From Minisyncoccota bacterium (lineage in GTDB: Bacteria > Patescibacteriota > Minisyncoccia > Phycocordibacterales > CAIZLB01), in the NCBI GenBank assembly GCA_021734945.1, contig JAIPIA010000002.1, forward strand, positions 194,829-258,828: a DNA stretch of 64,000 bases, in the 5' to 3' direction. Every line of letters begins with the position of its first letter. Position 1 is the stretch's first letter. The notes under the pieces were generated by a model that had not been told where the DNA came from, did not search any database, and saw only the letters and a program-made list of their open reading frames with translations. The position numbers and the translations under genes were made by a program. Positions 13,052 to 13,512 of this stretch are shown one piece after another.

Positions 13052-13205
13052 GGTTTTGCATATAAATTAACAAATCATATGAAAACTTAGACAGATTAAG
13101 TAATTATTGACATATCTATAATAATATGTTAATATAATATTTATCTTCAGGTAAAATGCTTGAATTGAATCCAACAACAGCAACCTCAGCCCCCCCCCCG
13201 TAAAT

Positions 13206-13466
13206 ATGAAAACTGCCTCGTCCCTCCTCGTTGTCCTCATCACCTTGCTCATTCTTAACACATCCTCCGCTGAAGCCGGACCTGTCCCGACGCTGATGTC
13301 GCCGGAAGCGGCAGAAGTGGCAGACAGGCTCAGCAACAGCACCTACTACCATAATGACGCGTTGTACGCTGTCTGGGTTTGGATAGGTCTCCTCGTCCTG
13401 TCCGGCGGCTTTACGATCAGATGGATTCTGAAAAACTATAGCCGCAAATCAAAGGACGGTCAGTGA
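13206..13466 (+). CDS. Small secreted/membrane protein on GC-rich islet 1
   Basis: Signal peptide MKTASSLLVVLITLLILNTSSAEA plus a C-terminal TM. Local GC is well above the flanks. A ~10-nt poly-C tract lies 7 nt upstream of the ATG. Confidence 0.4.
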   Translation: MKTASSLLVVLITLLILNTSSAEAGPVPTLMSPEAAEVADRLSNSTYYHNDALYAVWVWIGLLVLSGGFTIRWILKNYSRKSKDGQ

Positions 13467-13477
13467 TAAAACCACTT

Positions 13478-13512
13478 TGACCGCTCCCCAGAGGCTCGCC
13501 TGACCCGGCGAG
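13478..13512 (+). terminator. GC-rich rho-independent terminator of islet 1
   Basis: GAGGCTCGCCtgacccGGCGAGCCTC followed by tttttttaca. Confidence 0.6.

Follow-up and report, generated by a model that had tools for sequence, protein, structure and literature searches.

A putative single-gene cassette with a poly-C leader tract in the variable PLD-infC slot of a Candidatus Paceibacterota genome

Bacteria of the Candidate Phyla Radiation (CPR, Patescibacteria) are episymbionts with tiny genomes, and their attachment to a host depends on poorly known surface proteins. The locus considered here lies in a stretch of 64,000 nucleotides (the window, numbered from its first letter; contig JAIPIA010000002.1, assembly GCA_021734945.1, positions 194,829 to 258,828 of the forward strand) from a Candidatus Paceibacterota genome within this group. 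Between a phospholipase D-like (PLD) gene and infC, the gene for translation initiation factor 3 (IF3), the window carries a short GC-rich islet with an open reading frame (ORF) of 86 codons (ORF86), which is preceded by a run of ten cytosines (C10).

Strain-variable genomic islets occur at recombination hot spots between conserved core genes, and the PLD-infC locus belongs to this known class. Common to both are conserved flanks (here PLD and infC), alternative alleles (empty, toxin-antitoxin (TA) genes, or other ORFs), an atypical composition and mosaic flanks, as well as a presence or absence that differs among near-identical strains. The present islet differs in that it comprises one gene in 485 bp and has no integrase, transfer RNA (tRNA) or direct-repeat boundary; furthermore, unrelated ORFs stand behind a homologous promoter at this site, which is atypical of ordinary islets. 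A partial likeness also exists to the small membrane toxins of type-I TA systems and to other small membrane proteins, in that the product is short and hydrophobic, the gene has a predicted strong promoter and a terminator of its own, and it lies in a variable region together with TA genes. ORF86, however, is predicted to carry a signal peptide that is cleaved off, followed by an ectodomain; it is accompanied by no convincing gene for an antisense RNA and matches no family.

A further class of related systems are phase-variable surface proteins. Classic slipped-strand repeats sit either inside an ORF or between the -35 and -10 elements of a promoter, and bacteria, above all those that lack mismatch repair, show high slippage rates in G/C runs of about 8 or more. 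The vlp genes of Mycoplasma hyorhinis encode phase-variable surface lipoproteins with repetitive C-terminal regions, which form multigene families and are preceded by a poly-A tract between -35 and -10. Shared with vlp are a reduced-genome, surface-dependent lifestyle, small and fast-diverging surface-anchored proteins, conservation of the 5' region and the signal peptide, and a homopolymer in the 5' control region. In contrast to vlp, the tract of ORF86 lies outside the promoter spacer, and ORF86 lacks a lipobox, repeats and any paralogue within the window. In Moraxella catarrhalis, uspA1 has a G(n) tract 29 bp upstream whose length is 6-11 among strains and varies within cultures; it changes the mRNA level up to about 21-fold (PMC7302503). 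In both loci, a G/C homopolymer about 10 nt long closely precedes the start codon of a surface-protein gene (29 bp there, 6 nt here), and in each case the tract is found outside the ORF and outside the -35/-10 spacer. Unlike uspA1, for which length variation and an effect on mRNA are known, the tract described here is known from sequence alone. The products are not related, as uspA1 encodes a large trimeric autotransporter and ORF86 a bitopic protein of 86 aa, and the homologous leader of a related locus (L101, see below) lacks the tract.

We consider it probable that the islet is a lineage-specific orphan cassette in a recombination-prone slot, reusing a promoter and a leader that are typical of the clade. 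According to this reading, it would be a self-contained single-gene cassette in the PLD-infC slot of one Candidatus Paceibacterota clade, a slot that, depending on the lineage, is empty, holds a RelE/ParD-like TA pair, or holds unrelated small membrane ORFs driven by a homologous promoter. The locus has the following features, all on the + strand (TM, transmembrane; uORF, upstream open reading frame; handles such as L002 denote related loci):

11864-13051 (+): PLD-like gene of the cardiolipin-synthase type (Pfam PLDc_2, E=5e-41), left border of the variable slot
13058-13542 (+): lineage-specific insert relative to empty PLD-infC alleles; homology to L003 and L002 ends at ~13057 and restarts at ~13530-13543
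13092-13120 (+): promoter module CAGATTAAGnAATnnTTGACATATnTA, common to the L002-type cassette, 24/29 identical to L002 5865-5893
13107-13135 (+): predicted sigma-70-type promoter (consensus scan, 10/12 match)
13142-13205 (+): putative 5' leader of ~64 nt, its start placed from the -10 element; G-poor, C/A-rich, without a Shine-Dalgarno motif
13156-13203 (+): 15-codon uORF MLELNPTTATSAPPP, ATG at 13156, stop TAA at 13201-13203; the C tract lies within it, and 2 nt separate its end from the main ATG
13190-13199 (+): poly-C(10) tract in the leader, followed by GTAAAT and the ATG at 13206 (6-nt gap)
13206-13466 (+): ORF86, 86 aa, with predicted signal peptide, short ectodomain, TM segment and basic tail
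13206-13277 (+): predicted Sec signal peptide MKTASSLLVVLITLLILNTSSAEA, in which A-E-A precedes the site of cleavage (hydropathy, AlphaFold helix, inspection)
13356-13430 (+): predicted TM segment, residues ~51-75, followed by the basic tail KNYSRKSKDGQ (hydropathy, AlphaFold)
13490-13524 (+): predicted intrinsic terminator; stem 13490-13517 with 11 pairs (8 G-C, 100% complementary), 6-nt loop, T7
13543-13643 (+): infC promoter and leader, right border of the slot; conserved, with an L101-like variant in the window
13644-14156 (+): infC (IF3; Pfam IF3_N and IF3_C), 96-99% identical in clade relatives

Among the GC-rich segments of the window, which averages 37.6% GC, 13178-13516 (339 bp, 56% GC) scores highest, and it bears out the GC-rich islet that a first-pass annotation had placed between the PLD-like gene and infC. 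The remaining GC-rich segments sit within ordinary genes, namely the N-terminus of rpsE and an MBL-fold gene. The promoter consists of a -35 element TTGACA (13107-13112), a 17-nt spacer and a -10 element TAATAT (13130-13135) with a TG just 5' of it; it had been reported earlier with the same motifs and spacing, at coordinates (13106-13134) that are off by one. The reported C10 tract 5' of the start codon of an 86-aa ORF is likewise found, at 13190-13199. Of the proposed GC-rich terminator, the hairpin with its T run is present, whereas the stem has 11 pairs and not the 10 claimed. The terminator has a functional orientation on the + strand only and follows the ORF86 stop at a distance of 23 nt. 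The 29-nt promoter module has no occurrence elsewhere in the fetched loci or in the window besides the L002-type cassette. As judged from the sequence, the islet is thus supported as a discrete promoter-ORF-terminator unit. Its neighbours are core genes, and no tRNA genes, integrase or transposase genes, or meaningful flanking repeats were found at the locus. The PLD protein of the window is identical to MCF7865453.1, from a metagenome-assembled genome of Candidatus Paceibacterota.

The synteny PLD-infC-rpmI-rplT is kept in related Paceibacterota, for which the comparison set comprises about 45 further contigs from a 90%-identity IF3 cluster. The spacer between PLD and infC takes the following forms:

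97-200 bp, most lineages: empty; the sequence differs between lineages and is not conserved
589 bp, window: ORF86 cassette
754 bp, L106: RelE/ParE-like toxin and RHH antitoxin only
765 bp, L101 and L104: promoter, C/A-rich leader, 118-aa ORF with signal peptide plus TM segment (ORF118), terminator
1358 bp, L002 and five other contigs: TA pair, TTGACA promoter, 94-aa ORF with two TM segments (ORF94), GC-rich terminator

The L101-type cassette is also carried by L102 and L103, on contigs that end short upstream. The first-pass annotation had suggested a check for absence of the islet at this locus in relatives; the ORF86 islet is indeed missing from the PLD-infC gap in nearly all of them. Among contigs with an identical IF3 protein, some carry the 1358-bp insert and others do not (the slot is empty in L121 and L124-L127), and the slot therefore turns over on short timescales. 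ORF94 of L002 has a GC content at third codon positions (GC3) of 0.74 in a locus of 41% GC, with an ORF-length P of 0.0135, and is likewise an orphan for which no homologue was found; the L101 cassette with ORF118 has 48.5% GC and a GC3 of 0.46. BLASTP and tblastn comparisons of ORF86, ORF94 and ORF118 with each other are negative. A scan of 80 more distant infC loci gave no comparable high-GC3 small membrane ORF upstream of infC.

The TA pair of L002 (5210-5735, - strand) consists of a RelE/ParE-like toxin of 87 aa and an RHH/ParD-like antitoxin of 72 aa. It is also found in L106, L119, L120, L122, L123 and L128, with or without the ORF94 cassette.

The ORFs of these cassettes differ, and their regulatory parts are related. 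Measured against dinucleotide shuffles, the region upstream of ORF86 resembles that of L101 with z=5.5 and that of L002 with z=4.9, and the terminator resembles the L101 terminator CAGAGGCC...GGCCTCTTTTT with z=4.5; the ORF of the window shows no similarity to that of L002 (z=-0.4). The similarity of promoter and terminator without similarity of the ORFs indicates that the regulatory frame is homologous and the coding cargo different.

The flanks of the cassette are mosaic. Over the 100 nt of the infC leader that adjoin the cassette, identity to L101 is 88%, as against 71-79% to all other relatives. For the infC coding sequence the relationship is reversed, with 95-99% identity to AT-rich relatives and 86-94% to L101. 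On the other side, the last 100 nt of PLD are again closest to L101 (77% vs 61-71%). L101 represents a GC-richer lineage of the clade (locus GC 46.6%, PLD GC3 0.57). Import of the cassette by homologous recombination from a GC-richer member of the clade is the most likely origin suggested by these sequences; the allele would have arrived with some 100 nt of flanking sequence on either side, and no phage or plasmid source was identified. The foreign origin proposed in the first-pass annotation is consistent with the absence from relatives, the mosaic flanks and the GC3 of ORF86, which is 0.67 as compared to 0.29 +/- 0.06 in host genes (max 0.49). An explanation of the high GC3 as codon adaptation for expression is ruled out by the ribosomal protein genes, whose GC3 is low (0.20-0.39); because of these genes, the composition of ORF86 is regarded as foreign and not linked to expression level.

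Further sources and boundaries of the cassette were rejected. L101 itself is ruled out as donor, as its cassette is less GC-rich (48.5% vs 56%) and its ORF is different. An integron gene cassette is ruled out by the cassette's own promoter, a short perfect terminator hairpin instead of an attC site, and a locus without an integrase. An 11-nt direct repeat ATATGAAAACT (13077 and 13204) was rejected as an element boundary, being at chance level (about 0.3 expected from base composition); it is not conserved in L101.

We note that L101-L104 differ from the window, L002 and L003 by about 9 points in locus GC (46.6% vs 38-41%) and far more strongly in PLD GC3 (0.57 vs 0.34-0.37), at an IF3 identity of 96-99%. 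Gaps of this size among lineages with nearly identical IF3 indicate that base composition shifts quickly in this Paceibacterota clade.

ORF86 is likely to be coding, as far as its sequence tells. No other frame runs without a stop for more than about 65 codons through the islet, and GC1/GC2/GC3 are 0.49/0.45/0.67. In dinucleotide shuffles of the islet, an ORF of at least 86 codons has P=0.025 and the GC3-GC2 difference P=0.04. The public gene call of the cassette is a hypothetical protein of 78 aa on the opposite strand (13116-13352, -). This antisense ORF was rejected: its promoter is just a 9/12 site (13463-13435), it is without a terminator, and it extends into the AT-rich promoter DNA. ORF86 on the + strand is the better candidate because of the promoter, the terminator that works on the + strand only, the open frame, the GC pattern and the coherent protein.

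The predicted product has two hydrophobic segments, at residues ~1-23 and ~51-75. The AlphaFold model (mean pLDDT 73) consists of a helix at 4-22, a coil and a helix at 33-85, with a block-mean pLDDT of ~83-85 over residues 51-80. By inspection, the N-terminus reads MK, 15 hydrophobic residues and NTSSAEA|G, which fits the n-h-c layout of a signal peptide; about 30 polar residues separate it from the TM segment. The single TM segment (51-75) is followed by a positively charged tail, as expected on the cytoplasmic side. ORF86 contains no cysteine, hence no lipobox, and no repeats. Hydropathy and model thus agree with the signal peptide plus one TM segment that had been predicted from the first reading of the sequence. 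From these predictions we infer an orphan type-I (bitopic) membrane protein whose Sec signal peptide would be cleaved off, whose exposed part would be a helix of some 30 residues, and whose one TM segment would lead into a short basic tail in the cytoplasm. It would be an accessory protein of the cell surface or envelope, and its turnover would be rapid.

The searches for relatives of ORF86 were negative throughout. There is no match in a word-indexed search of 5.8 billion clustered proteins, in an exact protein look-up, in back-translated scans of genome, metagenome and viral contigs, or in BLAST searches of phages and plasmids at the DNA and protein level, and no paralogue within the window. 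An exhaustive phmmer search against 1.84 billion representatives returned just two spurious matches to repetitive proteins. The cassette has no match at or near the curated threshold in Pfam, PHROGs, NCBIfam, PADLOC and Rfam; the best family score, to the NCBIfam WGxxGxxG family, is below threshold (E=0.046, 14 bits vs a cut-off of 35). The absence of ORF86 from the protein collection follows from gene callers annotating the antisense strand. Such antisense calls on GC-rich cassettes are found both here (78 aa) and in the L002 type (72 aa; L119/L120 2555-2773, -), and ORF94 reaches protein collections solely via NCBI's own annotation. The orphan status of the cassette ORFs may therefore be partly technical, with callers for these AT-rich genomes annotating the wrong strand.

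Several observations weigh against the reading of the islet as an imported, protein-coding cassette. The promoter and the terminator are consensus matches, so that the expression of ORF86, and of the cassette as a whole, is something we infer. An 86-codon ORF appears in 2.5% of the shuffles of the GC-rich islet, and gene callers choose the antisense 78-aa ORF over ORF86. The similarity between the DNA of ORF86 and of ORF118 of L101 is marginal (z=2.7) and is confined to the signal-peptide region. The islet (56% GC, GC3 0.67) is GC-richer than the L101 cassette (48.5%, GC3 0.46), and the donor sequence was found in no protein, genome, metagenome, viral, phage or plasmid search, its relationship being read from the flanks alone. 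Finally, the family and homology searches assign no function to the protein.

A role for the C10 tract would add to the reading as an orphan cassette. The tract lies 55 nt 3' of the -10 element and upstream of the sole in-frame start (13206). Neither of the two classic slipped-strand mechanisms is applicable, since the tract is located outside both the -35/-10 spacer and the main ORF; given the predicted promoter and start, C10 cannot act via promoter spacing or via the main reading frame. At ten units, its length passes the threshold for slippage (about 7-8 units or more). The tract is also statistically exceptional: a search of the window for C8 gives 4 matches (3 overlapping ones in C10 and 1 at a C8 run) vs 0.29 expected, and 0/100 shuffles reach this count. 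G/C runs of at least 6 occur just twice in the window (C10 at 13190 and C8 at 29630), and runs of at least 8 are absent from 653 kb of related loci.

The leader in which the tract resides is not unusual for this genome. Only 6/63 long ORFs of the window match even a loose definition of a Shine-Dalgarno motif, and 57/63 are without one. In many genes, the ATG is preceded at a distance of 6-8 nt by a -10-like TACTAT or TATAAT (e.g. 3318-4073, 10089-10943, 11023-11751, 20924-21298 and 22353-25406), which suggests widespread leaderless mRNAs. The leadered genes of the window have C/A-rich, G-poor leaders, and the leader of ORF86 is of the same type. In L101, the homologous leader reads CCCTCAG-AAACAC-ATG and has no C run, as compared to CCTCAG-C10-GTAAAT-ATG in the window.

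The second C run, C8 at 29630-29637, is located in the C/A-rich leader of a gene for a conserved multi-TM membrane protein (region 29583-30300; true start of the gene ATG 29664), with a GC3 of 0.49 and a GC-rich terminator at ~30268-30300. C8 keeps an upstream ATG (29583) in the reading frame of the gene, and C7 or C9 would end this extension early. In the orthologues of the gene (L141 and L143; 58-60% identity) the leader is conserved and CA-rich, without a C run. Both C10 and C8 are absent from homologous leaders and are therefore recent, lineage-specific expansions.

With ten cytosines, the uORF ends in Pro-Pro-Pro, its stop 2 nt before the main ATG. Translation of tract variants shows that C8 and C11 fuse the uORF in frame to ORF86, placing a 16-17-residue N-terminal extension before the signal peptide, and that with C9 and C12 the uORF runs 33-34 codons across the ORF86 start. 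Hypothetically, a change by one C would thus alter the connection between uORF and ORF86. We regard C10 as a probable lineage-specific expansion, intrinsically prone to slippage, in a C/A-rich leader of the type found in this genome, which largely lacks Shine-Dalgarno motifs. An effect of the tract, if any, would be on translation, whose initiation the first-pass annotation had also named as a possible target, via coupling between uORF stop and main ATG or via leader structure; folding of 13142-13260 revealed no structure in the leader (-9.2 kcal/mol, z=+0.4).

Of the explanations that compete with or extend the orphan cassette, the one that survives best is a contingency locus, in which slippage of C10 switches or grades the surface protein via mRNA level, leader function or the uORF. 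It is a possibility with rather low probability. It draws on the exceptional tract statistics, on the position of the sole other C run between an upstream ATG and the true ATG in the leader of another membrane-protein gene, on the computed frame relations for C8-C12, and on uspA1 as a precedent for graded phase variation by a G(n) tract (PMC7302503). However, no length variation is seen: the single second copy on record (a 104-kb Logan contig from SRR12088351) is identical over 9.2 kb and may derive from the same reads, and no conspecific genome for a comparison of tracts was found in the collections. Translation of the uORF hinges on the transcription start, and an alternative -10 at 13152-13157 would leave out the uORF ATG. 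In a G-poor and T-poor leader, moreover, composition alone predicts open frames ending at ATG. The first-pass annotation had called the tract a classic substrate for phase variation. In this form the claim lacks support, since the tract is outside promoter spacer and main ORF and is absent from the L101 leader, as is C8 from its orthologues, with no sign that long-term selection has kept the tract.

A stronger version seems unlikely to us: a promoter-anchored expression site for surface proteins in Paceibacterota, at which a conserved promoter and leader would persist and the small membrane ORF behind them would be replaced again and again. In the present lineage, a hypermutable C tract would in addition toggle the coupling of uORF and ORF, and a CPR episymbiont would thus possess a phase-variable contingency locus. 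Full-text searches within a paper library gave no description of such an expression site or contingency locus for Paceibacterota. If true, the locus would be analogous to the variable surface antigens of mycoplasmas, and should the tract vary in length, it would be a first candidate for a contingency locus within the group. For now, the sequence is that of an ordinary orphan accessory gene, and its homopolymer is a candidate simple-sequence tract.

There is also a small chance that ORF86 is fortuitous and the islet is a non-coding foreign GC-rich remnant or a small RNA gene, the protein features being compositional. GC-rich DNA has few stop codons (hence the 2.5% of shuffles with at least 86 codons), no homologue is found among the billions of proteins searched, the codon usage is unlike that of the host (log-likelihood ratio -0.15 per codon), and the full transcript folds better than shuffles (z=-4.0). 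The terminator hairpin, however, supplies part of this z value, Rfam gives no matches, and the lack of homologues is partly an artefact of the antisense gene calls. The ORF also fits its surroundings, with an ATG directly after the leader and a stop 23 nt before the terminator. The order GC3 > GC1 > GC2 (P=0.04) is accompanied by the independent case of the L002 cassette (GC3 0.74, ORF-length P 0.0135), and the coherent topology (AxA signal peptide, TM segment, basic tail) recurs in ORF118 of L101.

It is improbable that ORF86 is a small membrane toxin or part of a defence or addiction module, of a type-I TA-like, holin-like or superinfection-exclusion-like kind. The slot does hold a RelE/ParE-like toxin and an RHH antitoxin in relatives, the small, hydrophobic protein ends in a charged C-terminus, and the weak promoter-like site on the - strand (13463-13435) could yield an antisense RNA. 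On the other hand, a cleavable signal peptide and a length of 86 residues are atypical for type-I toxins, the antisense promoter matches just 9/12 positions and the - strand has no terminator, there are no lysis or phage genes nearby and no phage or plasmid matches, and PADLOC, PHROG, Pfam and NCBIfam give nothing beyond the sub-threshold WGxxGxxG score. An assembly chimera or sequencing artefact (a poly-G/C artefact or mis-join), as might be suspected from the abrupt change of composition, the homopolymer and the single sample from which the sequence is known, is highly improbable: the insert lies mid-contig (contig of 100 kb or more), both junctions are in clade-typical sequence (the L002-homologous promoter module on the left, the infC leader on the right), the unit is coherent from promoter to terminator, and analogous cassettes occur at the same site in independent samples and assemblies.

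Under the reading as an orphan cassette, the locus is a hot spot next to a core translation operon at which small membrane-protein genes and TA modules would be exchanged among related lineages, and at which unrelated ORFs reuse a homologous promoter. For annotation, it implies that standard gene callers pick the wrong strand of these GC-rich cassettes, so that real products are missing from protein databases.

A second variable site is located further downstream (14951-15880), between rplT and an LDcluster4 gene. In the window it holds two ORFs, each about 100 aa long (15163-15477 and 15498-15800), which are tandem paralogues sharing 39% identity over 57 aa, with TTGACA motifs upstream at ~15060 and ~15137 and a terminator downstream at ~15828-15856. 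The public gene call at this site (159 aa, 15321-15800) merges the frames. In relatives, the site carries ORFs of 58, 59, 61, 98, 106, 121, 155, 166 or 213 aa, or nothing.

The second-highest GC peak of the window is the GC-rich part of rpsE (57344-57560), which is not an islet; the gene (56901-57617) encodes a ~90-residue N-terminal extension of low complexity, rich in G, R, P and A. Within the infC leader, a hairpin at ~13612-13630 consists of the stem AAAYGG/CYRTTT around a GGCA loop. It has no Rfam match and shows two compensatory changes across eight relatives, and it may be an operon-specific regulatory element for infC-rpmI-rplT.

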